From Candidatus Dadabacteria bacterium (lineage in GTDB: Bacteria; Desulfobacterota_D; UBA1144; Nemesobacterales; CSP1-2): 64,000 bases of DNA. Below, in pieces: positions 5,931-64,000 of this stretch (position 1 is its first letter; every line of letters starts with the position of its first letter). Location: contig PSLL01000006.1 in NCBI GenBank assembly GCA_040289575.1, forward strand, positions 24,583 through 88,582. The letters are read 5' to 3'. Below the pieces are notes generated by a model. It was not told the origin of the DNA and searched no databases. It saw nothing but the letters and a program-made list of their open reading frames with translations. The translations under genes were made by a program, and so were the position numbers.

Positions 5931-6208
5931 ATATAATAAACCATGAAATACTTATAGCAATTGGCATGGATATAGATATCGAGAAGTTAAATTCATAGGA
6001 TTATCCTATCACGGAGCCTACACCTAGCTCAGTGAACGTATTCTCCACAACGGCGGGTTCCCTAATTATGCCAGATTAAACGATTGAATTGACATAAAAG
6101 AGTATCTATATTAATTAGAAATTTATTATTATGGGCTAAATATAATTTTTTAAAATCCGATCTCGGTGGAAGGTCGACAAATACAATGGAAAATCGGAGA
6201 AATTACAG

Positions 6209-7342: not shown

Positions 7343-7402
7343 AAGATTTAAAACTACCTTCCATGAGTCCTGCGTGCTCTGGAACCAATGGTACTTTAGA
7401 TA

Positions 7403-48787: not shown

Positions 48788-50417
48788 TTAGTAGACAACC
48801 TTAAATATATCCATATCCTTAATTACCCAATTATCAACCGGTCTACTCTTAAAAGACATTATCAAAATGAAGTGTTTAGACCATTCATTATTATAAACCT
48901 CATACAAGTAAGAACGCCTTTTTATATTCTCTGTGTCCAACATCAAGTAACTGATTTGCATTTTTTTAAAATCTTGAATCGCACCCTCTAAGTTATTATA
49001 AATACCGGGTCTAAAGGTAGCCACACCCAATTGCTTGGATGATAAATTTAATAGATTTTTACTACCGATTTTGGAGTCTGTAAGGATCATTTCAATCAAA
49101 TCGCCGCCCTCAACAATCGCTATGTTCCCGTGCAGGTTGCTTGCCGCCCAGATTGCCCAACTATCCCGAACCTTAGGAGTCGCAATGCTTGTACCATTCG
49201 CAATACTCAGATGAATACTCAGTGGGATACGCACAAAAAGTAATAGAATAAATAGCAAAACTAAAATATTATTTCTATTGCCCTCTCTGAGAAGATCAAT
49301 CAAGAATTTCGATGAAATAACAAAAGTAAAGGGTAGCAGTACGTACAAATATCTTGGATTGCCATAAACCTCAAATACAGGGATAAAACCTGCAACGAAA
49401 ACAAAGAAAAGAATAAAAATTAGATCGAATCTTGAAAACCTCTCTAAAATAAGATACTTAATGCCGCCAAGGAAAAATAAGGCCAACCAAACCTCCCCCA
49501 GTAGTAATATAGAATTGATTCGCTACTTTGAACAAACCGTGATAGATAAATTTTCTAAAATAGTCATCAATCTTATGTGTTCTTAAGTAATTAATAAAAG
49601 ATGGGTTAAGGGTACCTTTCAGCGATGCTTGTGTATTGAAGTCTGCAAAGTATTGTGAATTCTTGCCAAAATCAAAAGCGGATCCATATGACTTATATCT
49701 CATATACAGGTCGGGCAGTGACACTAAAAAGAACAGAAATGGCACTAACAGTAGAAATGACCGGCTTAAGTTTGCCTTCTTATACCACAGTAACCACACT
49801 AGATACAGAAGGACAACACCCAGCATAAATATGCCATTGGGCCTCACATAATTTGAAAAACCAGCCAAGATGGTGGCAATGACAATTCTGTGCGATTTGT
49901 TTGCGGAATCCGCCAAATAATACACCGTTGATATAACCAATAAGATAAAGAGCGGTTCACTGTATCCCGAGTATTCCAAGCCGCCTGTACGTATCAATAT
50001 TGGAGAGAGTGCAAAGGCAAAAACAGCAACTATAGAAGATTTTTTATCAGTTAATTTATTAGCAAGGCCAGAAAAAGGGAAAATAGATAAACCCATAATC
50101 AAAATAGACAAAACTCTTGAAAGAATCATTCCATCAAAAATTGATCGGATACCGAATACCTTGAGAAAGGCGGCTAGCACTATTGACCAGCCAATTGAAT
50201 GGCTGTGCATAGGAATCCAATTTCCCTGTGCTATTTCAAAACCCTTTATTAGATAATAATACGCATCTTCCCGCAACACATCATTAAACGGTGTAGAAAA
50301 GGTCATTAATGTGACCATTAAGAGAAAACAAGAGGTTGTAAACCATATATATTTCGAGTATAAGTAGGGAAATGCAATATCTAATTTATTGTTTATATAG
50401 TTAATAGCATCTATCAC
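48788..50417 (-). pseudogene. GT39/GT83-like (ArnT/PMT_2-type) polyprenyl-phosphate-sugar-dependent membrane glycosyltransferase, split by a frameshift near 49460-49490
   Basis: The N-terminal 319-aa ORF carries the PMT_2/ArnT first-loop motif (REDAYYY…). A 232-aa ORF in another frame continues the multi-TM protein. The ORFs overlap at 49458..49486 next to a CCCCC run. Confidence 0.6.
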
Positions 50418-50511
50418 GATTTAACCTTTTATGCACTATGTGAAAGCGTACACCAGCCATTAAATTTTTATGGCAATATGAGACTACCATCCGACAATTT
50501 TTTAATAGTCT

Positions 50512-51543
50512 TCATTTCCTCCCTTTAACCGTACCACTACTCTTCTTTTTTGATATGAGAAAACCCCAGAAGAAGCCTATTTTATTGGAGATTTCAAATA
50601 AGAACATAAAAGGGAGATATAGTAAGAACTCTCCTACCGAACTAGACTGTCGTGCTCTCCAAAAAGCACTGAGTAATGTACCCGACTTTCCCATAATTCC
50701 CCATAGTATCAACCGAAACGAGCCTACAGAACCGTTCGAGTACTTCTTGTGATAACTCCAACCGTTGCGGCCAGTATCAAAGCACTTACTAACTGTATCA
50801 AGAACGCTCCTTCGACCGTACCGATGCCTGATCCGATGGTAGGGATAATAGTAAACCGGTATGCCTTCGGCACGTAGGCGCCTAGTCATGTCTGTATCCT
50901 CTGCTCTAAGTAGCGATTCATCGAAAAGCCCTACCTTCTGGAAGACTTCCCTCTTGAACGCAGCCCCTCCCGCTGCCTCTAGGTCGTGTTGTGTTGTTAT
51001 TTTTTCTTCTATAACCGACAGCCTTCGCCATCTTCTCTTCAATTTTTCTAACCAGTGTTCATCTAAAATTTCTTCACAAGATAGGCGCCTTCTAACACTA
51101 ACATCAAAGTAGAAATGGCTAACCCTGCTAAAGAAATCTTCCTCGGCTGCAATGATCTTGAATCGCACCACCATTGCACGGGGATTCTCCTGAAAAAACC
51201 TAATTATGGTTTCGGCATAATCAGGAGCCATTATGTAATCGTCAGCCACAATTGCAATTATGCCCCCGGAAGCATTGACAATGCCCGTGTTTCTCGTCGC
51301 CGGGATTCCCTTATGAGTTTGCCGACAGTACTTCAATCCCGGGTGACTCAGTGATATGCTCTCCATCATGCCCTCTGTACCATCTGTTGATCCATCATCT
51401 ACAACTATTATCTCTAGATTTTCCCTCGGTACAGTCTGAGAAAATAATGAATCCAAGCAACCACGGAGCATATCTTTGCGATTATAGGTCAAGACGATAA
51501 TGGATAGCACTCCAGGTTTTCCTCTGGTCATATTCAAATCCAC
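50512..51543 (-). CDS. Glycosyltransferase family 2 with a C-terminal hydrophobic segment (DPM1/GtrB-like polyprenyl-phosphate glycosyltransferase candidate)
   Basis: GT2 N-terminus (LSIIVLTYNRKDMLRGCLDSLFSQTV…EIIVVDDGSTDGT). Confidence 0.75.
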   Translation of the reverse strand: MDLNMTRGKPGVLSIIVLTYNRKDMLRGCLDSLFSQTVPRENLEIIVVDDGSTDGTEGMMESISLSHPGLKYCRQTHKGIPATRNTGIVNASGGIIAIVADDYIMAPDYAETIIRFFQENPRAMVVRFKIIAAEEDFFSRVSHFYFDVSVRRRLSCEEILDEHWLEKLKRRWRRLSVIEEKITTQHDLEAAGGAAFKREVFQKVGLFDESLLRAEDTDMTRRLRAEGIPVYYYPYHRIRHRYGRRSVLDTVSKCFDTGRNGWSYHKKYSNGSVGSFRLILWGIMGKSGTLLSAFWRARQSSSVGEFLLYLPFMFLFEISNKIGFFWGFLISKKKSSGTVKGRK

Positions 51544-51615
51544 GGTTTACACCTACCCCTTGAAATTAGCTTATCAATCATATCTAGAGGTGCATCAAAG
51601 AATAAGACGGTACGA

Positions 51616-52479
51616 TTAAAGGAGATTTCTCATCTTTATCATATCTCTCAGTTTCCAGTATTTCATGCTCAATCGCCAACTGAATCCGAGCAATATCGCC
51701 AAGAAATGAGAGTGCTGCCTTATATCAACTTTGTGCTTTTTCTCGTCCGCAATAATAAATTCCTCACCGTATTTCCTTCTTATGTAATACTCACCCTTGG
51801 TATACCAAACCCTCTGTTTTATTAAACCCACCAGCGAATCTCTACAATCCAGATAGGCGATAATATCGTCTGATTTATACAAATCGATTCCATTTTCCTG
51901 CAAACGGAGATAAAGGTCATAGTCCTCTCTCGATGGGAGTGATTCATCGAATAGCGGATTTATCATCCTTAAGAGTGTTCTCTTAATTGAAAAATTGCCC
52001 GACGACAGTCTGTTTACTCGATAGAGCCTACTGTCTTTCTTATTAAAAACTGCATCGTAGTTATAGAACCAGAAGTTGGAGTAGAAATCGTCCCTTAGCC
52101 TCTTAAGGTTCCCATTGAGCACCATTACCTCGGGATGCTCTTTGTGGACTCGAATTGTCTCAAGAATATAGTTTCGTTCGACTATGCAATCATCATCCAG
52201 GAATATTATAATGTCGCCGGTGCTTTGACTTAGGCCGTAGTTTCTTGCAAAGCTTGGACCTCTATTTCTATCTAACGAGTAGAGTCTGAGAAAAGAATAT
52301 TTTTTATCCAATAGATAGTTCATTTGTTTATCTGCCACACAATCACTATGGTCGTCTACAATGAGTACTTCTAAATTTATTTCTAATCCGTGTTCCCTGA
52401 TCTGTGGAATCAAGGAATTTAATAGATTGGCTAGCTTATTAAATCTGTTATACGTGGGAATAATGATTGAAACCTTCAT
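51616..52479 (-). CDS. Glycosyltransferase family 2
   Basis: GT2 N-terminus (VSIIIPTYNRFNKLANLL…LIVDDHSDC…FLDDDC). Confidence 0.8.
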   Translation of the reverse strand: MKVSIIIPTYNRFNKLANLLNSLIPQIREHGLEINLEVLIVDDHSDCVADKQMNYLLDKKYSFLRLYSLDRNRGPSFARNYGLSQSTGDIIIFLDDDCIVERNYILETIRVHKEHPEVMVLNGNLKRLRDDFYSNFWFYNYDAVFNKKDSRLYRVNRLSSGNFSIKRTLLRMINPLFDESLPSREDYDLYLRLQENGIDLYKSDDIIAYLDCRDSLVGLIKQRVWYTKGEYYIRRKYGEEFIIADEKKHKVDIRQHSHFLAILLGFSWRLSMKYWKLRDMIKMRNLL

Positions 52480-54272
52480 GGTCTTGTTATCTTAACAATC
52501 GCTTCCTCGGGCAGTGCATAAATCCATGTAAGCCCCCGGCGCAAAAGGAATGGGCGTCCAAATAGGTCGTGGAATTGGATCGGATCACTACCGTGAATTC
52601 TGTACCAGGTTGCCCCCTCTGATCTGGGGCCACACCAAATCTGGGCTGGGCCCTCTCCATATGTATCAATTCGCAGCCGTCCCTGAATGTCGCCGGGGAT
52701 GTTGGTCACACGTACCCAAATTAGAACCAGGTTGGCAATCAAGAGATTGGGATCACCCGTTGCATCCTCACCCACCGGCGTATTGAGAACCGTCCGTCGG
52801 AATCCCCCGGCCAAACCGTCCCACTCGAATCGTTCTGGATAGGGAGCACGGGGACGCGAATGGACCTCAATCCGTACTCGCGCCGTTCCCTCGTCATCCC
52901 GAATTGCCTCATCTCGGAAAATAGTAGAGAGTCCCGGACAGTAATGCGCAATTAGATTAATACCTGCTGCTGTTGATTGCTCTAGACCTATAGGGGAAAT
53001 TATGGTCAGTTTATCCAATTGCCCAAAGATACGCTCGGGAACAATAAAGATATTATGCGGAGGAGTCCGCCCGTCTTCTGTCGCAAGAATCTGTGCATTC
53101 TGAAGAACCTCAGGCTCACCAGATGCACCTATATGATAACGGTATTCAATATCAATCACGCGCTCCAGATGCTCGAGAAGAGTCCGTGATTCGGGGCTTC
53201 CACCGCAGTGGACATAGAAAGGCTGATAGGCTCCGGCCCACTCGATAAAATATGGCCGGGCGCTCCGTACCGGTCCCACTCTGTCACTGAAAATCCGGGT
53301 GAAGACAGGCATAAGACGCGTCAATCCACCTTCAACTGGAGCCTCGATGATAAGGGATGCACCAGCCAATCCCAGCTGTGGATGTGAACGGCTAGAGTTG
53401 TCAACCATCACCGCAGGCAAGCCGCACCAGAGGTCAATTCTATTTTTATCACCATCAGATGCATTGCTTCTTACTACCATTGGAAAAGACGCCACGCGAG
53501 TTTCAGGAAGTATCCAGTCAAATGCGGCACTGAAGGCATAAGTCTCAGGCAGTCGGCGATCGGCAAGCCGGTGATATTCCATAAGTAACAGATACAATGG
53601 CCTGTATAAGAATCGTGACCTCAGCACCAGTCGGCATAAGAGCAGATAGAGACTCAAGATTCGGGATCGATGTCCCAGTTCATTATTGAACATCCACAGC
53701 GCCGTCACCGGCTGAAGGAGGCTGCTCTTGTTGACTGTAATCGTCTCGTTCTCAACGAATCCCTCATGCTGAAGGAGGAATTTCGTGTACCGGAGCGAGC
53801 GAAGACCATAATATCCCACGGCGTCTATGTGATGACGAGTATATTCTTCTGGAAAGCACTTTGCCCAACGAATAATGGGTTTCGATGAATCCAGGTCTAC
53901 AAAGAAAATCAAACGCCCGCCCGGACGAAGCACACGTTTAATCTCGCGCAATGCGGCGACGAATTGCCTCTCAGTTAGGTGCTCGAACATCCAAATACTC
54001 ACCACCGCATCCACTGAACGATCTGATAAAGGCAGCCGCTCGACCTGTGAACGAATGACCCGATTGTATATTGATGCGGCGCTCTGAAGCGCCCCGGCGC
54101 CATAATCCACTCCCGTTACACGTCCAAATTCTGTCAGAAATTCCCAGCCGCCACCGCAACCCAAGTCAACGATCTCTAATGGATAACGACCAAGCCGTGC
54201 CAGCATCGGTCGCAAAAGATGGGTATGCCCCAGTGGATATTCCGCCGGAGCAACCACCCCAACGGTCCCCAA
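52476..54272 (-). CDS. Class I SAM-dependent methyltransferase fused to a ~400-aa C-terminal domain of unknown function (possibly DUF3048-like); GC-rich compositional outlier
   Basis: Motif I VDLGCGGGW and post-I LRPGGRLIFFVDL. The C-terminal domain contains GGLTRLMPVFT…GPVRSARPYFIEWAGAY. Local GC is visibly higher (~55%) than the flanks (~35-40%). Confidence 0.7.
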   Translation of the reverse strand: MGTVGVVAPAEYPLGHTHLLRPMLARLGRYPLEIVDLGCGGGWEFLTEFGRVTGVDYGAGALQSAASIYNRVIRSQVERLPLSDRSVDAVVSIWMFEHLTERQFVAALREIKRVLRPGGRLIFFVDLDSSKPIIRWAKCFPEEYTRHHIDAVGYYGLRSLRYTKFLLQHEGFVENETITVNKSSLLQPVTALWMFNNELGHRSRILSLYLLLCRLVLRSRFLYRPLYLLLMEYHRLADRRLPETYAFSAAFDWILPETRVASFPMVVRSNASDGDKNRIDLWCGLPAVMVDNSSRSHPQLGLAGASLIIEAPVEGGLTRLMPVFTRIFSDRVGPVRSARPYFIEWAGAYQPFYVHCGGSPESRTLLEHLERVIDIEYRYHIGASGEPEVLQNAQILATEDGRTPPHNIFIVPERIFGQLDKLTIISPIGLEQSTAAGINLIAHYCPGLSTIFRDEAIRDDEGTARVRIEVHSRPRAPYPERFEWDGLAGGFRRTVLNTPVGEDATGDPNLLIANLVLIWVRVTNIPGDIQGRLRIDTYGEGPAQIWCGPRSEGATWYRIHGSDPIQFHDLFGRPFLLRRGLTWIYALPEEAIVKITRP

Positions 54273-54502
54273 CCACGCTGCTCTCGGTACGACGTTGTCC
54301 AGCGGCTATCATGCGGAATATCACCCTCGACGAATCTGGCAATACCGTCTTCCACCAGCCAGGGACCGTGACCCGCTGTGCACACTAAAGTTCCCCGACC
54401 GTTTTTTACATCACACTGAAGGGCAATGTGACAATCGGGGCAGATCAGATCATCGGATCGGAAGGACATAAGGTTGTGAACCCTATCATATAGAACATTC
54501 AT
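54176..54502 (-). CDS. Trm112-like zinc-ribbon ORF overlapping the annotated start of the methyltransferase (possibly its frameshifted N-terminal domain)
   Basis: LICPDCHIALQ…LVCTAGHGPWLVEDGIARFVEG matches the Trm112/YcaR CPxC…C…(aromatic)x[IV]xDGI[PA]x[FLM][LV] pattern. The 3' half of the ORF overlaps the MTase ORF in another frame. Confidence 0.45.
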   Translation of the reverse strand: MNVLYDRVHNLMSFRSDDLICPDCHIALQCDVKNGRGTLVCTAGHGPWLVEDGIARFVEGDIPHDSRWTTSYREQRGWGPLGWLLRRNIHWGIPIFCDRCWHGLVVIH

Positions 54503-54511
54503 AAAATATTC

Positions 54512-55426
54512 TCATGAATCTCTATGTCGAATCTCTAAATTCGGCATCCCCCAGCACTCATACCCCATATCATGAGCCATCATACCTAAACCCTCTGTTT
54601 CTATCTCTCCAATATAAATTCCTTTCAAAATATGTAGGATCTCTCTTCGTGCTTCTAGTATATTTCCTTTTCTTATTCCTCTTAGAGCACTTAGTACCGC
54701 TCTCCTTATTATGGCTCTTTTTGGTTCAAGGTAATGGTTTCCCCTTATAAGTGGATTTTTTCTACCATACAAGAACGGAGGGAAAATCAACCCGTCTCTA
54801 TGAATATCCGCTTTTATTAAAAGCATGGTCCCACCCACAGCATGTAATTTTACTAGATCACTCTCATTTCTTAGGTCATGCATGTGTAATTTCCCTTTAT
54901 CCCTCCAGGCATTCAGATCGAAGCTCATACAGCCGTATTGCGTTAAGCAATACGGCTGTATGATGTCTTTTCCGGTTGCTAAAAGTTTTTCTATAATATC
55001 AGGAGGATACTCAATGACATCAACATCTATCCACAGGACCCAATCCTCATCATCAAGTGCATGAAAAAGGAGATGGTTTCGACTCCTTGCAAGTATAGTT
55101 CTTCTCTCTATTTGGATGTGTCCGGCCCATCGGGGTGTGCCCGGCGGTATATGAAACCCAAAATCCCTTTTCCACAGCCTAGCAGACCGGAACTCTTTTC
55201 TTAGCCCCGAAAGTGATTTTTCCAATTCAAGATAGGTGTTGTCTACGCTATCGCCTTCCAAGAATCCGAGGGAGATCAAGTTATGTGGGTAGGTTAATTT
55301 ATAGAGGGACTGAAAATAGGTTTCTAAAAACGCTTCGGCATCTTTAACCGGAGTTAATATAAGAACCTTGTCCCTATATTCCATAGCCACCCACCCTCCT
55401 CTATTTTCATGATAGGAAGTAATCAA
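54512..55426 (-). CDS. GT62-like glycosyltransferase (Anp1/Mnn9/Van1 family alpha-1,6-mannosyltransferase homolog)
   Basis: Several blocks match the fungal mannan-polymerase family: KVLILTPVKDAE…LTYPHNLISLGFL; DWVLWIDVDVIEYPPDII; HAVGGTMLLIKADIHRDGLIFPPF; ETEGLGMMAHDMGYECWGMPN. Confidence 0.65.
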   Translation of the reverse strand: MITSYHENRGGWVAMEYRDKVLILTPVKDAEAFLETYFQSLYKLTYPHNLISLGFLEGDSVDNTYLELEKSLSGLRKEFRSARLWKRDFGFHIPPGTPRWAGHIQIERRTILARSRNHLLFHALDDEDWVLWIDVDVIEYPPDIIEKLLATGKDIIQPYCLTQYGCMSFDLNAWRDKGKLHMHDLRNESDLVKLHAVGGTMLLIKADIHRDGLIFPPFLYGRKNPLIRGNHYLEPKRAIIRRAVLSALRGIRKGNILEARREILHILKGIYIGEIETEGLGMMAHDMGYECWGMPNLEIRHRDS

Positions 55427-55640
55427 CCGGAATTGATATAACTAGCTCTTTCATAAATATCAGTATTATATTGTGTAGTCTCATATCGATACCATTGATT
55501 GAGTATTGTTTCAAGCTTCCGGTAGAATCTGCTTTACCACATTCGACCAAGCTCGATCAATTAATATAAGTTTGGGTACTTTCTTGGTTAGATCATTCAT
55601 TATTTCCTGTTTGGTGCTCTTCCTTGCAATAAAGGTCAAA

Positions 55641-57030
55641 TTAAAATATCGGCTTGCTGATCTCCTCTGGGAATAAGCCTGGACTGGATTTGTTTGTATG
55701 ATCTCCTAATATGTATATGTAATCGTTGTTTTTAGTGTGTTCCTTTATCCATAGACCTAGCTGTTTATATCGCCCATATTCATCGTCGACACCTTTAATA
55801 TTTATACTATAAAACCTGTAAAGGGTTTGGTATGGTGCCCACAATATTGCTATTATGACTATAGTCTGGACGATGTATCTTCGCCTCTCTGTTTCTCCAA
55901 TTAAGTTAGCTTGAAATAACACATTGATTGCTATTCCAGAGGCGAGCGCTATCGACGGTAGAATTTGTTTGAATTGATGTCCCAAATAATATCCAGATGC
56001 ATTTACACCTAGAAAATCCAAGCCGATCCAGAAAACAATGCCTCCAAATGGTATCTTATTATCTATTATCCTTTTTTCTGGACAATAAATAGTAAGATCA
56101 ATGGATAGAATAAAACTATTTTAGAATGTCCCCAAGCATCAATAAACTTCCCAATCCTTATTTTATAATCGGCACTGCCCCCTTCCTTCTGCATTAAAAT
56201 TAACCATGCATCCTTGAAGTAATCAATCATAGTAACGCCACTTGCCAAAAGAGGAATTAAACTGAGACACATAGGAAACACAACAGCTGCGAATAAGAGA
56301 AATGAATCTCTAAAAGTACTTTTATAGGTTAAGGAACGTTTATCACCTAAGCCTAATAAAAATGCAAATAGTGCAATAGCACTAAGTATTGCAGTTTGCT
56401 TAAAAGCAATTGCGATTCCCATAAAGAATCCAGCAATTAAGGTGTCTCTAATATATAATAAAAGGCTTCTTGCTTCCTGGGCCTTTAAAAGAAATAAGAA
56501 AGCGAGAGTTGAAAATAAAACCATGAATGATTCAGTCTGTGCGGTATATGCTCCATCCATCAGCCTTCAAATCATGCTGAAGCCAAAGAGAATCATAGTG
56601 AGGACACCAACTAAATGATTGCATAATTTTCGTCCAATTATATAAAGTAAAATTGAAGTCGTAACAATAGATAAGCTAGCCAGAATTCTCGGAAACCAAA
56701 TATTTAGATCGAATAGAAGATTGGAAATGACAAATACTATATAGATGCCCGGAGTCTTATTCTCAATGGCTCCGATGTATAGAGGAATCCCATACTTAAT
56801 CCATAGAAAAGCAATATAATTCCACATCCCCTCGTCATTGCCCATGTATTCACTGAAAGATGCAATTAGAAGCAGGGAAAAATAATTATTGCTACTATAA
56901 TAGGACTGGTCACAACCCTATAAAGACTATTATATAAACCCATCTTATTCATACTTTTCGGTCTCAAAAAATAATCTCTTGTCAAGACCAATTCTTTCTC
57001 CAAATGACTATTTACATGGAAAGAAAGCAT
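55641..57030 (-). pseudogene. Second GT39/GT83-like (ArnT/PMT_2-type) membrane glycosyltransferase, broken by two frameshifts and an in-frame TGA
   Basis: Consecutive minus-strand pieces: 56863..57030 (first TM helix), 56567..56845 (DEGMWNY…ENKTPGIY loop motif), 56066..56560 and 55641..56021. A TGA at 56567-56569 separates two pieces in the same frame. Confidence 0.6.
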
Positions 57031-57131
57031 TATTCACCTCTATCTATAGCCGTATCCGTTCCCTGAATAGCCACCTAAGGTTCTATGTATGTAATCACAA
57101 CTAGATGAGAATAGGCTAAATTATAAAGTAA

Positions 57132-57935
57132 CTACTCGTAATCCTTAGACAGATAGTGCGAAACCACTTTGCGGGTTTCGTCATTGATCACAATCCTTCC
57201 TTTACTTAAAAGAATCGCTCTATCACAGAGGTTCTCAATTGCTTTCATATCATGGCTTACAAAAAGCACCGTTCGTCCTTCAGATGCTACGTCCTTCATC
57301 TTATTGAGGCACTTCTCCTTAAATGCCCCGTCTCCTACCGCTAAGACCTCATCCAACAGCATAATCTCTGGCTCCAGGTGTGTGGCAATGGCAAAAGCAA
57401 GGCGCACATTCATACCGCTTGAGTAGTGCTTAATTGGCGTATCTAAAAAATCCTCTACTTCTGAGAATGCCACAATTGCATCGAATTTGCGGTTGACCTC
57501 TGCCCTTCTCATCCCCAAGATTGTGCCACCGAGGTATATATTCTCCCTTCCTGTCAGTTCGGGATGGAAGCCGGTACCAACCTCAAGCATCGAACCCATC
57601 TTACCATAGATTTCAGCATAGCCCTCCGTTGGCTTTGTAATCCGAGAAAGAATCTTAAGAAGAACCGATTTACCGGCGCCGTTAGAGCCGATTATGCCCA
57701 CCACCTCGCCACATTTAACCTCAAAGGAAACATTCCTTAATGCCCAAACGTATTTGTCATCTTCTGATCGCCGTCTGCTGTGATTATTCGTTCCATAACG
57801 AATGGCAGAGGAAAAACGACGAAATGGTGCGCGCATGACGTCCTCTAAGAATTCGCGCATGGCGTTGGTCGCTCTCGGCCGATCTATAAGAAAGCGCTTG
57901 CTAATACCTATAGCCCGAATTGCGAGGTTACTCAT
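57132..57935 (-). CDS. wzt: Polysaccharide/O-antigen ABC exporter ATP-binding protein (Wzt/TagH/KpsT type, no C-terminal carbohydrate-binding domain)
   Basis: Walker A GSNGAGKS, ABC signature YSSGMNVRLAFA, and the typical N-terminal region of glycan-export ATPases. 267 aa. Confidence 0.85.
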   Translation of the reverse strand: MSNLAIRAIGISKRFLIDRPRATNAMREFLEDVMRAPFRRFSSAIRYGTNNHSRRRSEDDKYVWALRNVSFEVKCGEVVGIIGSNGAGKSVLLKILSRITKPTEGYAEIYGKMGSMLEVGTGFHPELTGRENIYLGGTILGMRRAEVNRKFDAIVAFSEVEDFLDTPIKHYSSGMNVRLAFAIATHLEPEIMLLDEVLAVGDGAFKEKCLNKMKDVASEGRTVLFVSHDMKAIENLCDRAILLSKGRIVINDETRKVVSHYLSKDYE

Positions 57936-57938
57936 CTC

Positions 57939-58796
57939 TTACACCACATCGGCAAAGGCATCTTCTTTATATCTGAAGAAGTATAATCCCCCTACAAGTA
58001 GTGCGATTACCACTATAATTGAAAAAGTAAGTAGCATAGTTGGAGGATGTGTCTTTCCTAAAAGCGCCCATCTGAAACCCTCGACTACACCAGCCATTGG
58101 ATTAAGGCCGTAAATCGCCCGCCATCGTTCCGGCACCAGGCTACTCGGATAGGCAATAGGGGTTGCAAAGAGCCATATTTGAGTCAGAAATGGCAGAGTA
58201 AATCCCACATCCCGATACCTGACATTCAAAGCAGCCAACCACAACCCAATCCCCAAAGCCGTTGCTACTGCTAGTATGATAAAAAGAGGCAGCGCCCACA
58301 AAGCCATTGTTGGAACAATCCCATAAAACAACATCATTCCAATCAGCATGACAAACGTTATTGCGAAATCCAAAAACCCAGTTATCACAGTAGTCATTGG
58401 AATTATAAGCCTTGGGAAATAAACCCTAGTAATCACAGCCCTATTATTTACCACGCTGTTGCTTGACTGGGTCAATACATTGACGAAATATGTCCATGGC
58501 ACAAGCGCACTGTATGCAAATATAGGGTAAGAAATCCCTTCGGAAGGCACCCTTGCCAGTTTGCCAAAGAATACGCTTAACACCACCATGGCGATAAAAG
58601 GCTGGATGACAGCCCATGATGCACCAACTATAGTCTGTTTGTATCGCACCTTAATATCACGCCACGCAAATAAGTAGAGCAAATCCCGGTACTCCCATAA
58701 CTCACGGAGGTTGAGCAAAATCCCCCTACTCGTAGGTCGAATTATAGTCGTTGGGCAATCAGATGAATCTACACCTATGAATTTGATCCCTTTCAT
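57939..58796 (-). CDS. wzm: ABC-2 type polysaccharide export permease (Wzm)
   Basis: Six TM helices with the Wzm N-terminal motif (YRDLLYLFAWRDIKVRYKQTIVGASWAVIQP). The start is placed at the internal ATG 58794-58796, which has an AAAGGA RBS 5 nt upstream. The longer ORF (to 58928) would overlap the upstream GT2 by 124 nt. Confidence 0.8.
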   Translation of the reverse strand: MKGIKFIGVDSSDCPTTIIRPTSRGILLNLRELWEYRDLLYLFAWRDIKVRYKQTIVGASWAVIQPFIAMVVLSVFFGKLARVPSEGISYPIFAYSALVPWTYFVNVLTQSSNSVVNNRAVITRVYFPRLIIPMTTVITGFLDFAITFVMLIGMMLFYGIVPTMALWALPLFIILAVATALGIGLWLAALNVRYRDVGFTLPFLTQIWLFATPIAYPSSLVPERWRAIYGLNPMAGVVEGFRWALLGKTHPPTMLLTFSIIVVIALLVGGLYFFRYKEDAFADVV

Positions 58797-58804
58797 TGTT
58801 CCTT

Positions 58805-59488
58805 TCACAGTTGCCATTGCACAAATAGGGATTTCAGCCAACGCTTTATTCGGATCCGGTTTGCCATTTGCAAGCCGAGTGCATGACGGAGCGGTTCTGA
58901 CAGATCCAACAATAATTGATACCTCCATGACCTTCGGCTTTTATAAAAATATATAAACTCATCAATAAAATGCTCTCTCTGTAAAGCCCCGTCCCAACAG
59001 ATTCTCATAGCCCAGTCAATATCCTCAGAATAGCTTATATCCTCAAATTTATAACGGAGTGCAATTTCGCGTTTCATCGGGTTAAGATGATACGGCGGTC
59101 TGAAGTATACCCCTCCCCTTGAGAAATACTCTCTGTATCGTAGTGAATGTATGAAAATGCGCGGTTTTTTTCCACCAAAGGTAATTATGCCCTTGATCCC
59201 GATACAATCAATATCCAGATTCTCTCTTATCACACTACAAATGAGAGGAATGTAATTGTTGCTAACATCATCGTCGTCATCAATGAAAGCGACGAATCTC
59301 CCCCTTGCCCTCTCTATAAGCCTATTTCTCTTGAATCCAAGTGAGTATTCCCTGTTGTCTAAGAGATACAAAATCTCTACTTCATCGGCAAGGGAATTAC
59401 CGGTTATTTGATTACTCAGTTTTTCATATAGTCTATGAAATTGTTCCTTTCTGCTATCGAGAGTCGGTATGAGAATACTGAATAGCAT
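58805..59488 (-). CDS. Small glycosyltransferase family 2 (227 aa)
   Basis: GT2 N-terminus (FSILIPTLDSRKEQFHRL…FIDDDDDVSNNY). Confidence 0.7.
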   Translation of the reverse strand: MLFSILIPTLDSRKEQFHRLYEKLSNQITGNSLADEVEILYLLDNREYSLGFKRNRLIERARGRFVAFIDDDDDVSNNYIPLICSVIRENLDIDCIGIKGIITFGGKKPRIFIHSLRYREYFSRGGVYFRPPYHLNPMKREIALRYKFEDISYSEDIDWAMRICWDGALQREHFIDEFIYFYKSRRSWRYQLLLDLSEPLRHALGLQMANRIRIKRWLKSLFVQWQL

Positions 59489-59498
59489 TTATAAAGTC

Positions 59499-60353
59499 TC
59501 AGTTATGATTATCTTTATTTGCACTTACTGGTATTTCCAGCCAGTGTGAAAGGTCGCGCCTCAGGATGTCCTGAGTCTGTAATATATCCTCCCGGTAATA
59601 TTCAATCAGCCACTCACGCACCTCAGTCTGAAGCTCCGGTTTTCTTAGATTGCTTTGCCTAAGTCCCCCTAGAATCACGTCCCAGACCTTTAGTCGAAGT
59701 TTTAGTCGAGTCTTCTCAGATAAGAACGGTCTCAATATATCCGAGATAAAATTCGGCTGAGTTAGAAAGGTGTTAAGCTTCACATTTATTGGATAACCGG
59801 AGACATTATGTCTGGCTGGGGCCTTGATCACAAGTTTCCCATCCAAATCAAGGAATTGAACTATACTCTTGATTAATTCCCTTGGATTCCGCTGCAAATC
59901 CTCAAAGAGGAAAACCCCAATCTGCTCATGGCAAAAAAGAGACAAATATCGCGCAATCTGTTCAGCGTAAAGCCCCATTCTTCGATAAAACCAGAACGGA
60001 GACCAACCATTACGCATCCTTTCTTCCTCCGCATTGATCGCTTCTCTAAAATCATCGAGATTTTCATACTCCAAAAGTCTGTGATGGAGAAAGTGAGAGT
60101 ATGCCCTGTCTATTGGATTGCGCAGGATAGCTATGATTTTGACATCCGGTATATAGTGCTTAATTCGATAAGGGGCTTTTGGGCTATAAAGGTAAAGAGG
60201 AGAAGCTTCTCCAATAGCCTTCTCATCCCGAACCCCGGAAAAGAGAGAACAATAGGTTTTAATGTCTCGTATCCCTTGGTTATCTTTAGGTCCCCGAAAC
60301 GGTTCGCTTTCCCCTTCGACCGCAAAGAATAGTGGCTCCTTTATAGAACTCAT
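59499..60353 (-). CDS. Sulfotransferase-family protein lacking the N-terminal 5'-phosphosulfate-binding loop (probably truncated)
   Basis: 3'-phosphate-binding motif RNPIDRAYSHF and the IKEPLFF region typical of PAPS sulfotransferases. No K-x-G-T-T loop is encoded. The ATG overlaps the TGA of the upstream GT4 fragment (ATGA). Confidence 0.6.
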   Translation of the reverse strand: MSSIKEPLFFAVEGESEPFRGPKDNQGIRDIKTYCSLFSGVRDEKAIGEASPLYLYSPKAPYRIKHYIPDVKIIAILRNPIDRAYSHFLHHRLLEYENLDDFREAINAEEERMRNGWSPFWFYRRMGLYAEQIARYLSLFCHEQIGVFLFEDLQRNPRELIKSIVQFLDLDGKLVIKAPARHNVSGYPINVKLNTFLTQPNFISDILRPFLSEKTRLKLRLKVWDVILGGLRQSNLRKPELQTEVREWLIEYYREDILQTQDILRRDLSHWLEIPVSANKDNHN

Positions 60354-61108
60354 GAAAATCTGCGGGTTCCGATTACGTGTAAATGAATATCCTCACCATG
60401 CAACCTCACTTCCGACAATATATCTATTATATTTTCTAATCTCTTCTCACCAGAAATCCTCCCAATGCATACAAAACCATTCTCTCTCTCCTGCCAGGGC
60501 ACATCTGGGAAGAGACCGGGAACTGGAGGATATACAGTTGTCGTCTCAATTCCATAAGATTCTCTGCACTTGATTCCGGTCCAGTCCGAATTTACCAGGG
60601 TGAGGTTCTCTTTCATTCTTTCAAACGAATAACCCGAAATCGCCATCCATGGCCGGTACTGACCACGCACTATACCCCATAGGCATTGATACCAAGGAAG
60701 ATCAACGAACTGCTGGCATATAGGCTCGAATCGAGGAAACCAGGGGTAGTGAACATATTGGATTCCCCTGCAGCCGAGGTCAGCCTCCCCGTTGGCGGTG
60801 ATAATAACATCGTAATCGCCATTCATCTTCTTGCACAGGCGCATGAGAAAGGCAAACTTTTGTGCGCTGTGGGGGTCGGGGTCAAGCTCTATTAAACCGC
60901 GTATGAGCCGGGGAGTATAATAGACCTTGAAATCAGATGAGCTGAGAGATGTTCCAAAGAACCGGTTGATCGCGGCAACACTAACGGGTGCCCAAGTCAG
61001 AACAGAAACCGAGTTTTCTCGTTTCAGAGCTTCAATCATCCATACTGCCACAGCATTTCCACCGCCCAGTGGCTCAAGGCTGGGCTGCACAAGTAAGACC
61101 TTTTTCAT
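60350..61108 (-). pseudogene. N-terminal two-thirds of a GT4 glycosyltransferase (paralog of 62150..63331) lacking the C-terminal catalytic half
   Basis: ~60% identical over 250 aa to the N-terminal domain of the 393-aa GT4 at 62150..63331 (…NLTLVNSDWTG…TTVYPP.P..FPDVPW.ERENGFVCIGR…HLH.IGT). It then terminates where the full copy continues for ~140 aa. Confidence 0.65.
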
Positions 61109-61129
61109 CGAGGACGTCTATGAAATCGG

Positions 61130-62146
61130 CTACAGACTTATGCCAGGCAATTTTAAATTCTCACATTCCGCTTCAACTGTTGGAGCAGATATACTGCCAT
61201 CTCCTGCGGAACGCAGCATATTCAAACTATCCTGTAAATTGTACTCCCACTTATCCAATAGATGATTCATGATTTTTGGGTTGTCGGCTAACTCTCTGAT
61301 GGAGCGTCTTGGCACACCGCCCGTAGGAGATATACCCAGCGGAAGGTCCTGCCATATTACTCCATCAAAATAAGCCTGCATATTTCGCCAAAATAATTCA
61401 TGGGATTGACTTGCTAGAGCCATGTCAAAGACATTTTTAGCATACATATACTCCTTATTCCACATATATGACAGGTTATTTCTCCTATATAAATCCGCCC
61501 TTGACTCCAGCTTCTTAAGGTAGTTCACAGGAAAAATCGCCCGATACCTGTAGAACGGCTGGGGTAAGTAGTAGGTGTGCTCTCCCTTCGCGTACAGCAA
61601 ATAATCCCTTAGTTTACGGGAGCGAAACACAAAACGCTTGAGGTCGTAACCGACATCATAGGCATCGCCTTTTGAGATTATATATTCCTTGTTTTTAAAT
61701 AGCCTCCTCCTAAAATCCACAATCCAGAGTAGTCTACTCCCCATTATGTTATAGAACGGCAATCTGAACATCTCCACGTCTGGGTAAAGAACGGGTAGGT
61801 TTCTGATCTCTTCTAGGGAGGATTCATGTATTATCTCGTTTGCCTGAACATAAAGACAGTAACTGCCAGTACATCTCTGTTTTAAAAGATTGGTCATCGT
61901 CGCAAGGATTTCACCCCTCTCCGTTTTGCCCCTCCATTCGTCTCTGAAGAGTCTGACCTTGCCGGGGAACCTTCTCTCTAAAATTTGCAAGGCTTTCCAT
62001 GTCTTATCCGATGAATAGCCTTCGGATATAAGGAACTCGTCACAAATAGGCAGAGCGGCTGTTATAGCCTCTATAAACGGGTATCCCTGCGATACGACGT
62101 TTTTCAATATCATAAAGCCCGATATGGTCACTTTTTCTACAGGCAT
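61130..62146 (-). CDS. Putative GT-A-fold glycosyltransferase, uncharacterised (338 aa)
   Basis: N-terminus ISGFMILKNVVSQGYPFIEAITAALPICDEFLISEGYSSDKT resembles uncharacterised GT2-like proteins of glycan loci. The call is weak. Confidence 0.35.
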   Translation of the reverse strand: MPVEKVTISGFMILKNVVSQGYPFIEAITAALPICDEFLISEGYSSDKTWKALQILERRFPGKVRLFRDEWRGKTERGEILATMTNLLKQRCTGSYCLYVQANEIIHESSLEEIRNLPVLYPDVEMFRLPFYNIMGSRLLWIVDFRRRLFKNKEYIISKGDAYDVGYDLKRFVFRSRKLRDYLLYAKGEHTYYLPQPFYRYRAIFPVNYLKKLESRADLYRRNNLSYMWNKEYMYAKNVFDMALASQSHELFWRNMQAYFDGVIWQDLPLGISPTGGVPRRSIRELADNPKIMNHLLDKWEYNLQDSLNMLRSAGDGSISAPTVEAECENLKLPGISL

Positions 62147-62149
62147 GGT

Positions 62150-63331
62150 TTACACCCATCGAGTCTTCTGGAATTGTCTTACGATTTCCTGAATATCACT
62201 CATAAATTTCTCTGTCGAGAACAGCTCTTTTCTTGATCTCAAGTAGTCAATCAATGACATTTGCTCATCTGGATTCTCTATCACGCGTACAATCTTCTCG
62301 TTTGCTTCCTCTTCAGTCCTATAAACCAGACGTTCATCCCCTCCTACAATCTCCAACTGCCCGCCGCTGTTATGAACAAAGGCTATACAACCCGCTTTGA
62401 TCATCTCTCCCACCGCAATCCCGAAATGTTCCTCTATGTTTGCGTGAATTCCGTACCTGTGCCTGGAAATCAGATTTATAAGCTTCTCTCTCGATAAGTT
62501 TTCGTGTAAGAGAACCCAAGGAGAATTTTCTCTTACAACTCTTATAAGTCTTGAATAATATTCGCTTTCACCTATGAATGGGCTAGGGGTTCCTATGATA
62601 TGTAAATGGAGATCGGGGATTCTCGCCCTGACCTTTGCAAGAATCTCTATTATCGTCTCAAATCTCTTCCCAGGGCAGAATCTCCCAATACAGACAAACC
62701 CGTTTTCCCTCTCATTCCAGGGAACATCAGGAAATTTGTCAGGAATCGGGGGATAAACTGTTGTAGCATCAATCCCGTAACGTTCCTTAACTTTATTTCC
62801 CGTCCAATCCGAGTTAACGAGGGTAAGATTATCTTTCATCCGATTGTATGAAAAACCTGAAATCAGCATCCAGGGCCTATAACTGCCTTTCAATGCTTCC
62901 CAAAACTTTCGATGATGAGGCAAATCAATATCGGGTTGAATCTTTCCGTATAAATAAGGATAGTGAAAATACTGTATTCCCCGACATCCGAAGTCTATTT
63001 CATTCTCGGTGGAGATTACTACATCATATTTGCCATTCAACCTCTTGCATAAGCGCATCAGGTAGCTCTGCCTCTGAATACTTGCGGGATCGGGGTCTAG
63101 GTTTATAATGCCACGCAAAACGGGGTTAATATGATGCACAGTAAGCTCTGAACTCTTAAGTGAAGTGCCGTAGAAGCGGTTTATCTCCTCGAAATTAGGA
63201 GATTTCCAGGTTAGTAATGAGACTGAATACTCCTTCTTCAACGCCTCAATCATCCAGGCCGCAACCGTGTTTGCGCCCCCAGGGGGTTCAAGAGTGGTTT
63301 GAACAAATAAGACTTTTTTCATAGATGACAT
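62150..63331 (-). CDS. Glycosyltransferase family 4 (full-length copy)
   Basis: GT-B N-terminal domain plus a C-terminal Glycos_transf_1 domain (…EHFGIAVGEMIKAGCIAFVHNSGGQLEIV…). Confidence 0.8.
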   Translation of the reverse strand: MSSMKKVLFVQTTLEPPGGANTVAAWMIEALKKEYSVSLLTWKSPNFEEINRFYGTSLKSSELTVHHINPVLRGIINLDPDPASIQRQSYLMRLCKRLNGKYDVVISTENEIDFGCRGIQYFHYPYLYGKIQPDIDLPHHRKFWEALKGSYRPWMLISGFSYNRMKDNLTLVNSDWTGNKVKERYGIDATTVYPPIPDKFPDVPWNERENGFVCIGRFCPGKRFETIIEILAKVRARIPDLHLHIIGTPSPFIGESEYYSRLIRVVRENSPWVLLHENLSREKLINLISRHRYGIHANIEEHFGIAVGEMIKAGCIAFVHNSGGQLEIVGGDERLVYRTEEEANEKIVRVIENPDEQMSLIDYLRSRKELFSTEKFMSDIQEIVRQFQKTRWV

Positions 63332-63354
63332 TCAATAATTCTACAAACTATTAG

Positions 63355-64000
63355 CTACATGACACGTTCATTCTTTCTCTCCCAGTTAATGTACTTAAAC
63401 TTGTTAAAATACGTGTTGAATACATCGGCAAAATCGCCATGTAATATTCTGTCAGCCACATACTTAAACTGATGGATCAATCTTTTTGAACGATATGCAG
63501 GTATCAAAATATCCGTCTTTTCTTTATTGTCGGATGCGAATAATTTTATCTTTTCAACTATATAAGGGAAAAGCTGATAACGGTACAATACGAGATTTCT
63601 GGCCTCCTCTAAAGCCGAAATACGCTTTTCCTAGTCATCCCGATCTATAATCTCCCTTATCTTTTTCAAACTAGCCTCTGGTTGATCTACATCAATTCGT
63701 ATAAAAGACTCTTTGGGAAAATACTCCTCTAGATTCGTACAACCATAGTATATGGGAACCGTCCGGGTAAGAAAGCAATCCGCTACTTTTTCTGTCCAGT
63801 AATCAGGACCGCTACTGTTCTCAACCGCAAGCGAGTATTTATACGGAGCCAGTCCGTCCCACTTGTCCTTGACACATCTGATTCCTCTTCCGAATACGTC
63901 TATATTGAACCTGGCATTTTGCCTGAGGAAATCCAAGAGTGCCATCTTTTTCCTATGCCCCGGAAGAAACGTCAGTTTGCTTGTAACCCAAGATATAGCC
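63355..64000 (-). pseudogene. GT10 (alpha-1,3/4-fucosyltransferase-like) gene, C-terminal part, with an in-frame TAG at 63631-63633; the N-terminus lies beyond the window end
   Basis: GT10 signature YKYSLAVENSSGPDYWTEKVADCFLTRTVPIYYG. The frame is open upstream of the listed Met to position 64000. A TAG separates two ORFs that are in the same frame (…IREIIDRDD*EKRISALEEARNLVLYRYQLFPYIVEK…). Confidence 0.6.

Follow-up and report, generated by a model that had tools for sequence, protein, structure and literature searches.

The locus considered here lies at the end of a 64,000-nucleotide stretch of DNA (hereafter the window) from contig PSLL01000006.1 of a ‘Candidatus Dadabacteria bacterium’ metagenome-assembled genome (MAG), where the 15.2 kb from position 48788 to the window edge (the island) carry a block of glycan genes around a Wzm/Wzt ATP-binding cassette (ABC) exporter. 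Among the closest described systems are the polymannan loci of Escherichia coli O8/O9a and Klebsiella O3/O5 (WbdA/B/C, WbdD, Wzm and a Wzt with a carbohydrate-binding module, CBM). Described terminated systems have a terminator with a coiled-coil ruler and a Wzt whose C-terminal CBM gates export (PMC11231755). The island resembles the polymannan loci in its ABC export, GT4-type glycosyltransferases (GTs), possible mannose polymer and nearby methyltransferase (MTase), but it has no WbdD-like coiled coil, no kinase and no CBM on Wzt; it also contains a GT62 enzyme, its MTase is a component of a separate module, and a multi-module GT4 polymerase of the WbdA type was not identified here. With the Klebsiella pneumoniae O2a galactan type the locus shares adjacent Wzm and Wzt genes, a short Wzt without a CBM, soluble GTs, the lack of Wzx and Wzy, and a fixed variable site. 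Unlike that type, it includes GT62, GT10-family and sulfotransferase genes, and no priming enzyme or ligase was found in it.

The S-layer glycosylation loci of Geobacillus and Paenibacillus combine Wzm/Wzt with methylation of the chain end and with the O-oligosaccharyltransferase WsaB, which is of Wzy_C and not of GT-C type. ABC export, a membrane transferase and methylation are common to those loci and this one; here, in contrast, the membrane transferase is of GT-C type, the host is diderm, and no S-layer target was identified. Three-component periplasmic decoration, as in the Gtr, GacI/J/L and GT136 systems, consists of a polyprenyl-phosphate-sugar synthase, a flippase and a GT-C enzyme (PMC11127046). 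The present locus has a GT-C enzyme in an ABC-dependent setting and, at its far end, two GT2 enzymes (GT2a and GT2b) with two C-terminal transmembrane (TM) helices; it differs in that no flippase was identified, the synthase assignment is weak, the GT-C is lineage-restricted and both GT-C genes are interrupted. The yeast mannan polymerases M-Pol I and II (Mnn9, Van1, Anp1) belong to the same Pfam family as the GT62 enzyme of the island, with Mnn9 as its best fold match and the catalytic residues kept. Unlike them, prokaryotic GT62 enzymes are soluble proteins of 250-300 aa that lack an anchor, are presumably cytoplasmic and lie beside an ABC exporter, and no Van1-like or Mnn10-like partner is evident here.

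We read the island, with a probability of roughly two in three, as a mosaic and partly decayed Wzm/Wzt-dependent surface-polysaccharide locus that combines a shared core, an MTase module and lineage-specific parts. The core would be a horizontally shared set of GT4, GT2 (227 aa, GT2-227), Wzm, Wzt and GT62, joined by GT10 and, outside the window, by one GT4 and one GT2 gene. The second part would be an independent three-gene module of an MTase-DUF3048 fusion and two GT2, and the third would comprise lineage-specific GT-C membrane transferases and sulfotransferases. As a whole the locus falls into the familiar class of surface-glycan loci that depend on an ABC transporter, and its unusual part is a widely transferred GT62 cassette.

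In the pathway that we propose, soluble cytoplasmic GT4, GT2-227 and GT62 would assemble the glycan on a polyprenyl carrier at the inner membrane face, Wzm/Wzt would export the finished chain without recognition of a terminal cap, as in Klebsiella O2a-type systems, and the exported chain would be attached to an acceptor. In fully equipped sibling strains the chain may also be sulfated, modified by GT10 and decorated in the periplasm by the GT-C enzyme. In the window strain these accessory functions would be inactivated, with the core cassette and the two GT2 of the second module left intact. The gene families and their order, the lesions, the synteny, the modular structure, the kept catalytic residues and the missing CBM are shown by the data. 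The lipid carrier, donor sugars, product, final acceptor and expression of the genes are the elements of this scheme that we infer.

Gene content and modular structure of the locus

The preliminary description of the window had listed, from 48788 to the edge, a Wzm/Wzt exporter, three GT2 and two GT4 genes, two ArnT/PMT_2-like membrane GTs, a GT62, a GT10, a sulfotransferase and an MTase fusion. Pfam largely bears out this inventory, and every open reading frame (ORF) of significant length in the island is on the minus strand. The features are as follows.

48788..50417, minus strand: GT-C-fold membrane glycosyltransferase, 542 aa when intact, here 319 + 232 aa
50512..51543, minus strand: GT2, intact, 339-343 aa (Pfam Glycos_transf_2, E=2e-29), member of the MTase-DUF3048 module
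51616..52479, minus strand: GT2, intact, 287 aa (Pfam, E=4e-24); 4-bp overlap between its start and the MTase gene end
52476..54502 (ORFs 52476-54272 and 54176-54502), minus strand: Zn-ribbon-like N-terminus, class I S-adenosylmethionine-dependent MTase and DUF3048 (Methyltransf_11, DUF3048 N- and C-terminal domains), 686 aa when intact
54512..55384, minus strand: GT62 (Anp1/Mnn9 family), soluble, intact, 290 aa (PF03452, E=2e-53)
55641..57030, minus strand: PMT_2/ArnT-like GT-C pseudogene in pieces of 54, 92, 164 and 126 aa (PMT_2, 36 and 21 bits, 55641-56845)
57132..57935, minus strand: Wzt, ABC nucleotide-binding subunit, 267 aa (Pfam ABC_tran)
57939..58808, minus strand: Wzm, ABC-2 permease, 289 aa (Pfam ABC2_membrane; NCBIfam Wzm/KpsM-like matches below cut-off)
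58805..59488, minus strand: small GT-A/GT2-like transferase, 227 aa, intact (Glycos_transf_2, 25.8 bits against a cut-off of 23.3)
59499..60353, minus strand: sulfotransferase remnant, residues 32-315 of a 315-aa enzyme (Sulfotransfer_1)
60350..61108, minus strand: GT4 remnant, N-terminal 242 residues of a 378-aa enzyme (protein comparison)
61130..62146, minus strand: 338-aa protein without a significant family match, intact (best Pfam match Glyco_tranf_2_4, E=0.003, below cut-off)
62150..63331, minus strand: GT4, intact, 393 aa (Glycos_transf_1, E=4e-18), cross-phylum cassette member
63355..64000 (63631 to the edge before the stop), minus strand: GT10-family gene cut by the window edge (Glyco_transf_10)

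The Wzm/Wzt exporter is confirmed by Pfam ABC2_membrane and ABC_tran matches on neighbouring genes, and the three GT2 genes by matches at 50512-51543, 51616-52479 and 58805-59488. Only one of the two GT4 genes (62150-63331) is intact, the other (60350-61108) being a truncated 242-residue remnant. When all 20 proteins of the locus were scanned against NCBIfam, none scored above its curated cut-off and only generic GT2, GT4 and ABC matches were obtained. The 338-aa protein had no NCBIfam match and only a chance-level PDB match to a de novo designed protein; among 80 related loci it is full-length only in L009. PDB sequence searches with the 393-aa GT4 and the 227-aa GT2 gave no informative relative, and no TM segments were seen in the GT4, GT2-227, GT62 and GT10 proteins in a hydropathy scan.

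The expectation that the locus runs past the window end was borne out by near-identical contigs from other sequencing runs, found by exact-protein look-up (Logan contigs L001/L005/L091, L002/L006, L003 and L092); two further contigs, L004 and L007 from JGI, match the window at 99.98-100% identity. The sibling contigs carry the locus on for about 8 kb beyond the edge; this part holds the remainder of GT10, a Stealth fragment, one GT4 and a pair of GT2 genes, and it ends at a glutamate dehydrogenase gene. The full order in the Logan contigs (lengths in aa) is glutamate dehydrogenase, GT2a(349), GT2b(349), GT4(406), Stealth fragment, GT10, GT4(393), unknown(338), GT4(378), sulfotransferase(290), GT(352), sulfotransferase(315), GT2(227), Wzm, Wzt, [PMT_2 pieces], GT62, MTase-DUF3048(686), GT2(287), GT2(339), GT-C(542), and then the alcohol dehydrogenase gene adh. 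The island is the downstream two-thirds of this variable surface-polysaccharide locus of about 22 kb, which occupies a fixed site beside adh, ferredoxin and pyruvate:ferredoxin oxidoreductase (PFOR) genes. Promoter and terminator scans returned sites that were fewer than, or no more numerous than, those in shuffled sequence, and operon boundaries therefore could not be drawn. The Stealth fragment just beyond the edge (L005:7216-7659) encodes 147 aa, covering only the CR2 region of this hexose-1-phosphoryltransferase family; Stealth homologues accompany GT62 in L010 and L022.

Comparison with three more distant loci separates the site from its content. The flanks of L008 and L009 (adh, ferredoxin, PFOR) and of L012 (ferredoxin, solute symporter) are 88-98% identical to the window, but identity falls to 73-89% in the glycan genes, and the sets of genes are not the same. 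L008 carries GT10, GT4, GT4, sulfotransferase, GT2-227, Wzm, Wzt and GT62, with GT62 abutting adh, and L012 is without the MTase module. Changing content at a fixed site is what an O-antigen-like hypervariable locus shows. L008, L009 and L012 are labelled as Ignavibacteriales, Spirochaetia and Deltaproteobacteria MAGs, yet they are syntenic with the Dadabacteria window; they are probably mis-binned contigs or carry outdated labels.

A set of the genes that are intact in the window, namely GT4(393), GT2-227, Wzm, Wzt and GT62, recurs as a cassette well outside this lineage. In the cultured cyanobacterium Aphanothece hegewaldii CCALA 016, a locus adjoining apcE (GT2b, GT4(406-type), GT10, GT4(393-type), GT2-227, an FkbM methyltransferase, Wzm, Wzt and GT62) keeps the same gene order as the Dadabacteria locus, and the proteins are 53-69% identical. 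Subsets of the cassette were found in Solibacteraceae, Blastocatellia, Bryobacterales and Acidisarcina (Acidobacteriota included), KSB1, Abditibacteriota, Latescibacterota and Bathyarchaeia-labelled contigs. GT2-227 orthologues (52-78% identity) lie beside Wzm/Wzt, GT62 or both in 9 loci, and GT4(393) orthologues (43-82% identity) lie beside GT62 in 14. The 53-69% identity of glycan genes across phyla argues for horizontal spread of the cassette.

The exporter itself conforms to the short type. The best PDB match of Wzt is Aquifex aeolicus Wzt (E=2e-66), to the nucleotide-binding domain only; the alignment of the 267-aa protein to its 404-aa counterpart, which includes a carbohydrate-binding domain, stops at residue 259, and the island Wzt has no carbohydrate-binding module. 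No Wzx- or Wzy-type Pfam match was found among the locus ORFs of at least 90 aa. These results support a glycan-assembly locus that depends on the Wzm/Wzt ABC exporter. A group-2 capsule (KpsMT) requires KpsC-, S-, E- and D-type genes; none is present in the locus, and this identification was rejected.

The MTase had been described as part of a Trm112-MTase-DUF fusion and proposed as a WbdD-like chain terminator. Pfam supports an MTase-DUF3048 fusion, which is frameshifted in the window; for Trm112 there is no Pfam match even at E<=1, and only a CxxC...C..H motif is visible, which leaves that label unconfirmed. PDB matches of the MTase at E<=1 include no WbdD chain, only generic class I MTases and YerB. 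A globular YerB-like DUF3048 (PDB 2PSB) follows the MTase domain at the place where a coiled coil would be, and the longest run free of Pro and Gly (used as a crude proxy for coiled coil in place of a coiled-coil predictor) is 35 aa in the fusion and at most 70 aa in any protein of the locus. With a Wzt lacking a CBM and an MTase lacking both WbdD similarity and a coiled coil, the proposed role as chain terminator is not upheld.

Few proteins have this fusion (about 16 clusters among 5.8 billion proteins), and no published function of DUF3048 was found in the literature. On a Desulfoferrobacter contig the MTase-DUF3048 gene (42% identity) lies beside orthologues of both window GT2 (51% and 48%) and this module carries another, fused ABC exporter, and in L008 and L012 the MTase is missing and Wzm/Wzt and GT62 are retained. 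Since the MTase is inherited with the two GT2 independently of Wzm/Wzt and GT62, the three genes form a separate module inserted into some Dadabacteria loci. The Desulfoferrobacter sp. region (L089:10001-15547: MTase-DUF3048, two GT2, fused ABC_membrane/ABC_tran) adjoins a giant Big_1/invasin-like protein.

Base composition adds to the mosaic picture in a different way from that first described. The island had been called clearly more AT-rich than the upstream genes; its GC content is 42.4%, compared with 44.0% upstream, which places it just under the lowest of the upstream 15.2-kb windows (42.5-44.5%), and its tetranucleotide distance is unremarkable. The description as clearly AT-rich does not hold, and a low-GC genomic island is ruled out by both measures. 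The striking feature is internal heterogeneity: GC per gene ranges from 34.5% to 53.5%, with GT-C genes and intergenic spacers at 33-37% (the PMT_2 pseudogene at 35-37%) and the MTase-DUF3048 gene at 52-53.5%. The island is a compositional mosaic with genes of 35-53% GC.

The GT62 enzyme and its neighbourhoods

The assignment to GT62 is the firmest of those made for the island. The protein, which is 100% identical to an NCBI protein from a ‘Candidatus Dadabacteria bacterium’ MAG, matches PF03452 with 181.8 bits (cut-off 28.8, E=2e-53). Its best PDB sequence match is yeast Mnn9 (3ZF8, E=1e-22), and 3ZF8 is also the top Foldseek match of the predicted model (E=7e-14, TM-score 0.57, model pLDDT 67). 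Mnn9 activity requires R209, Asp236 of the DxD motif and the Mn-binding His389, and R210 and T365, which line the acceptor pocket, are likewise needed (PMC3787745). In 16 GT62 sequences R94/R95, D120-V-D122, T263 and H287 are invariant or nearly so, and they align with Mnn9 R209/R210, D236-x-D238, T365 and H389; D280 and E305 were not alignable in this comparison. With the Pfam match, the Mnn9 sequence and fold matches and the kept catalytic residues, GT62 membership of the prokaryotic enzyme is well supported, as the preliminary description had proposed. By homology to Mnn9 the enzyme is predicted to be a retaining, metal-dependent mannosyltransferase that uses GDP-mannose. It has no hydrophobic or TM segment, and the sequence opens with the catalytic domain; it shares neither the type II membrane anchor nor the Golgi-lumenal setting of the yeast enzymes.

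GT62 enzymes of this kind are widespread in prokaryotes. The 16 members, from different phyla, have a mean column identity of 67%, and 2430 word-indexed homologues were found, with 57-84% identity among the best-scoring 120 clusters, whose names point to several phyla. A pattern scan of GTDB species representatives placed relatives in at least 216 prokaryotic species, among them members of Cyanobacteria, Acidobacteriota, Alphaproteobacteria, Actinomycetota, Chloroflexota, Bacteroidota, Abditibacteriota, KSB1, Calditrichia and Bathyarchaeia-labelled contigs. A representative-library search yielded 1876 GT62 clusters at E<=1e-3, many of which are C-terminal domains of long fusion proteins; at L035:6750-9863 and in nine other loci GT62 forms the C-terminal part of fusions of 700-1800 aa with large N-terminal extensions. 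The island had been said to carry eukaryote-type GT families, a statement that fits GT62 and not the rest of the set, and even GT62 has a broad prokaryotic distribution. The literature, in which GT62 is treated as a fungal Golgi family (PMC5225481), yielded no study of a prokaryotic GT62/PF03452 member.

The company that GT62 keeps was counted by clustering all ORFs in the 80 related loci. GT4 is the most frequent neighbour (41/80), followed by PF11051, the GT71 family of yeast Mnn1/Mnn2/Mnn5 (23/80), a second GT4-like gene (20/80), GT10 (17/80), a GT2-TPR protein (15/80) and FkbM methyltransferases (5/80). Two types of neighbourhood emerge, one with Wzm/Wzt and one with the arrangement GT71-GT62-GT4 in Alphaproteobacteria and Acidobacteriota. 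The repeated pairing of GT62 with a mannosyltransferase family, GT71, is circumstantial support for mannose chemistry, and the only support for a putative alpha-1,6-mannosyltransferase activity with GDP-mannose. In the second type (23/80 loci, L025-L086, e.g., L070:7963-9567) GT62 lies directly beside PF11051, GT4, a conserved protein of about 280-380 aa without a Pfam match, and GT2-TPR. This arrangement, which brings together two families known from fungal mannan synthesis, also extends to groups other than Alphaproteobacteria and Acidobacteriota.

The window copy of GT62 has one peculiarity, a perfect palindrome at 54925-54963, within the coding sequence, whose 17-bp arms enclose a loop of 5 nt. 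In the relatives L008, L009, L012 and L013 the corresponding site is no more than an imperfect quasi-palindrome. The window copy differs by about five substitutions in a span of 39 bp, every one of which brings the hairpin closer to perfect pairing, and together they turn the conserved motif QPNCVKQYGG into QPYCLTQYGC. This looks like a single template-switch mutation (quasi-palindrome correction).

Accessory genes and their decay

When the window was compared base by base with the near-identical Logan contigs, about half of the island genes proved to be truncated or interrupted in the window copy. The largest lesion is a 2441-bp deletion with its junction at 60363/60364. It cuts the 378-aa GT4 to its N-terminal 242 residues, takes out a 290-aa sulfotransferase and a 352-aa GT (both carried by L005), and strips residues 1-31 of the 315-aa sulfotransferase, including the GAPRSGTT 5'-phosphosulfate-binding loop. 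Over residues 32-315 the remnant and the L005 protein are identical (100%). Sulfotransferase similarity (Sulfotransfer_1) and a 3'-phosphate-binding-like RNPIDRAYS motif are kept, but with the loop deleted the preliminary label of a sulfotransferase using 3'-phosphoadenosine 5'-phosphosulfate (PAPS) applies to the intact 315-aa and 290-aa enzymes of sibling strains and only in part to the window gene.

The MTase-DUF3048 fusion, whole in L001, is split by a 1-bp deletion at 54223, in a C homopolymer, and an in-frame 33-bp deletion near 53410 removes 11 conserved codons (VDEENRGRRPV) at the start of DUF3048. Over 11.5 kb the sole difference between L003 and L001 is one frameshift in the same gene, in a G5 run, so that single-base frameshifts have arisen independently in two samples (window 54223, C run; L001 12611 = L003 3304, G run). 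This could be recurrent inactivation or slippage-based switching. The GT10-family gene matches PF00852 with 49-58 bits (cut-off 23.9), although the N-terminal GT10 domain was not detected, and the fucosyltransferase-like assignment stands at the family level; the frame is interrupted at 63631-63633, codon 251 of 342, by a TAG in place of the TGG (Trp) of relatives, leaving 250 codons. The 342-aa GT10 proteins of L008 and L009 can be aligned through the TAG without a change of frame.

Both GT-C genes are interrupted as well. A 1-bp insertion at 49508, in a C run, splits the 542-aa gene, which is intact in L001/L091. The PMT_2 gene has a window-specific 1-bp deletion at 56077, an in-frame TGA at 56564-56566 and an apparent upstream frameshift; its 92|306 split is also present in L005. 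The preliminary call of two ArnT/PMT_2-like GTs was right as to the GT-C/PMT_2 signal and the GT-C fold, but missed that both genes are broken. The pseudogene at 55641-57030 passes the PMT_2 cut-off (36 bits) and is absent between Wzt and GT62 in L008, L009 and L013. GT62 directly follows Wzt in L008, L009 and Aphanothece, which marks the PMT_2 pseudogene of the window as an insertion.

The intact 542-aa protein has nine hydrophobic segments in the hydropathy scan. Down to E=2e-7, every match of its AlphaFold2 model (pLDDT 78) is a GT-C enzyme; these include AglB/STT3, DPY19, ALG9/12, ArnT and Aft, and Pmt1/2 ranks only 29th. The family is small, with 19 homologues in 5.8 billion proteins, and is characterized by an invariant D18 in the first loop and a C-terminal soluble domain with an invariant D-x-W-A-x-W motif. 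The fragment at 49458-50417 reaches 25.9 in PMT_2 against a cut-off of 26.1; the intact protein has no PMT_2 match, and neither PF02366 nor MIR was matched. The model supports membership of the GT-C superfamily, not specifically of GT39 or GT83. With only a general PMT_2/GT-C signal and no PF02366 or MIR match, the GT39-like label was not sustained.

A DPM1/GtrB-like GT2 with a hydrophobic tail had been assigned to 50512-51543. This protein has generic GT2 matches only, with none to GtrB, DPMS or ArnC, and its C-terminal hydrophobic stretches fall below the TM threshold, leaving that assignment without support. GT2a and GT2b, of 349 aa each and outside the window, have two C-terminal TM helices and weak similarity to DPMS (5MLZ, E=4e-9) and ArnC (1e-6), with these matches ranking below generic GT2 matches. 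They are the best candidates for a polyprenyl-phosphate-sugar synthase, an assignment that is weakly suggested by their sequences.

Left whole in the window are the two GT2 downstream of the MTase, the 338-aa protein, and GT4(393), GT2(227), Wzm, Wzt and GT62. The GT10 TAG, the PMT_2 TGA and the 147-aa Stealth fragment are common to the window and sibling strains. The preliminary description had suggested a mannose-rich, possibly fucosylated, methylated and sulfated surface glycan. With a TAG in GT10, loss of the sulfotransferase loop, and an MTase that is frameshifted and lacks 11 codons, a sulfated, fucosylated, methylated product is unsupported for the window strain.

Competing explanations and wider reach

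The decay would have a trivial origin if the lesions were artefacts of assembly or sequencing and the window strain really had the full functional locus of the Logan contigs, which we consider improbable. Such an origin would suit the three 1-bp indels in homopolymers (T6/7, C4/5, C5/4) and the fact that MAG assemblies can collapse or mis-join sequence, and the lesion-sharing JGI contigs, at 99.98-100% identity to the window, are probably the source data. Because all single-base indels lie in short homopolymers, sequencing error is possible for those indels. However, the GT10 TAG, the PMT_2 TGA and the Stealth fragment recur in Logan assemblies from other sequencing runs, no collapse-causing repeat is present at the junction of the 2441-bp deletion, and a further independent homopolymer frameshift in the same MTase gene was seen in another run. 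The distribution of changes tells against artefact in the same way: relative to the same Logan contig, the island has 11 single-nucleotide polymorphisms (SNPs) and 5 indels in 15.2 kb, and the adjacent housekeeping DNA of the same contig has 2 SNPs and no indels in 16.6 kb (P=0.007 and 0.025). Confinement of the indels to the island argues for real decay under relaxed selection.

Two functional alternatives give the genes a single purpose. Were the whole block one pathway for a mannose-rich, fucosylated, methylated and sulfated O-antigen, with a WbdD-like MTase setting chain length as in E. coli O8/O9a, one would expect what is indeed seen, namely Wzm/Wzt, GT4, GT62, GT10, sulfotransferase and MTase in one same-strand block; methylation is plausible in general, for another, FkbM-type MTase lies within the cassette in Aphanothece and four further loci. 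Yet the CBM that every described terminated system has on its Wzt is missing here, the MTase shows neither similarity to WbdD nor a kinase domain or extended coiled coil, L008 and L012 keep Wzm/Wzt and GT62 without the MTase, which elsewhere travels with its own GT2 and another exporter, and GT10, sulfotransferase and MTase are all damaged in the window strain. We regard this pathway as highly improbable. Protein glycosylation (of an S-layer, or general O- or N-glycosylation), in which Wzm/Wzt would export the glycan and the GT-C enzyme would act as oligosaccharyltransferase, is quite improbable too, although the best folds of the 542-aa protein are the oligosaccharyltransferases AglB and STT3, its C-terminal soluble domain has the invariant D-x-W-A-x-W, and the locus has no WaaL ligase. 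The fold matches in fact span the GT-C superfamily (ArnT, ALG9/12, DPY19, Aft) at TM-scores of 0.5-0.6, there is no WWDxG motif, and the gene is frameshifted in the window. It is also missing from L008, Aphanothece and most other cassette loci, and the GT-C enzyme is therefore not an obligatory partner.

Several points weigh against the mosaic, partly decayed Wzm/Wzt-dependent locus that we prefer. No WecA/WbaP-type priming enzyme, no WaaL-type ligase, and no genes for synthesis of GDP-mannose, GDP-fucose or PAPS were found in the scanned ORFs of the 22-kb locus and the window, which leaves the carrier, the donors and the final acceptor putative. Priming transferase and ligase genes often lie elsewhere in the genome. 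In the 80 related loci, sugar-nucleotide and PAPS synthesis genes were likewise not found near the cassette, as judged from annotated recurrent gene clusters. Confidence in the GT62 model is no more than moderate (pLDDT 67), the characterised GT62 enzymes do not include a prokaryotic one, and the donor specificities of GT62, GT4 and GT10 are inferred only from family membership. The lineage-specific cluster of substitutions in a conserved GT62 motif might impair activity. As for the lesions, all four single-base indels are in homopolymer runs of 4-7 nt and some could be assembly errors, and only the JGI contigs, probably from the same sample, share the window-specific lesions.

For this genome the outcome is mostly corrective: the island is an ordinary hypervariable glycan locus with half of its accessory genes dead, and a sulfated, fucosylated, methyl-capped mannan is not to be predicted from it. 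The wider value lies in the intact core, since tightly conserved, soluble GT62 homologues are found in at least 216 prokaryotic species and in each case within glycan loci. We found no paper that describes this gene combination, in agreement with the preliminary description, which did not know it as a described system, and no functional study of Dadabacteria glycosyltransferases. A tentative reading, which we think unlikely as it stands, is that stand-alone prokaryotic GT62 and its partners (GT4, the 227-aa GT2 and Wzm/Wzt in one type; PF11051 GT71, GT4 and GT10 in the other) form an undescribed, horizontally mobile system making yeast-like, alpha-mannan-based surface polysaccharides in many phyla, possibly including Bathyarchaeia, and are a relative or source of the fungal Golgi mannan-polymerase toolkit. 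That toolkit has so far been considered confined to fungi. Cultured strains, Aphanothece hegewaldii CCALA 016 and Abditibacteriota IAD-21, have the cassette, which makes its product and enzyme activity directly testable; both are of interest for bacterial polysaccharides and for the question of where the fungal mannan machinery came from.

The rest of the window holds housekeeping and envelope genes, including RND efflux pumps with a TolC-like outer-membrane efflux protein (OEP), MutL, PurH, MlaD, AnmK, NagZ, a MurQ-like SIS protein, PFOR and alcohol dehydrogenase. The genes for OEP, MlaD and OmpH in the window indicate a diderm bacterium. Further glycan genes are found at 5157-8527 and 16054-17631 (a nucleotidyltransferase and two GT4; a 525-aa, Glyco_transf_21-like GT2), and one regulatory element was recorded outside the island:

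20468-20604, minus strand: c-di-AMP riboswitch (98 bits), upstream of an amino-acid-permease-family gene at 19343-20392

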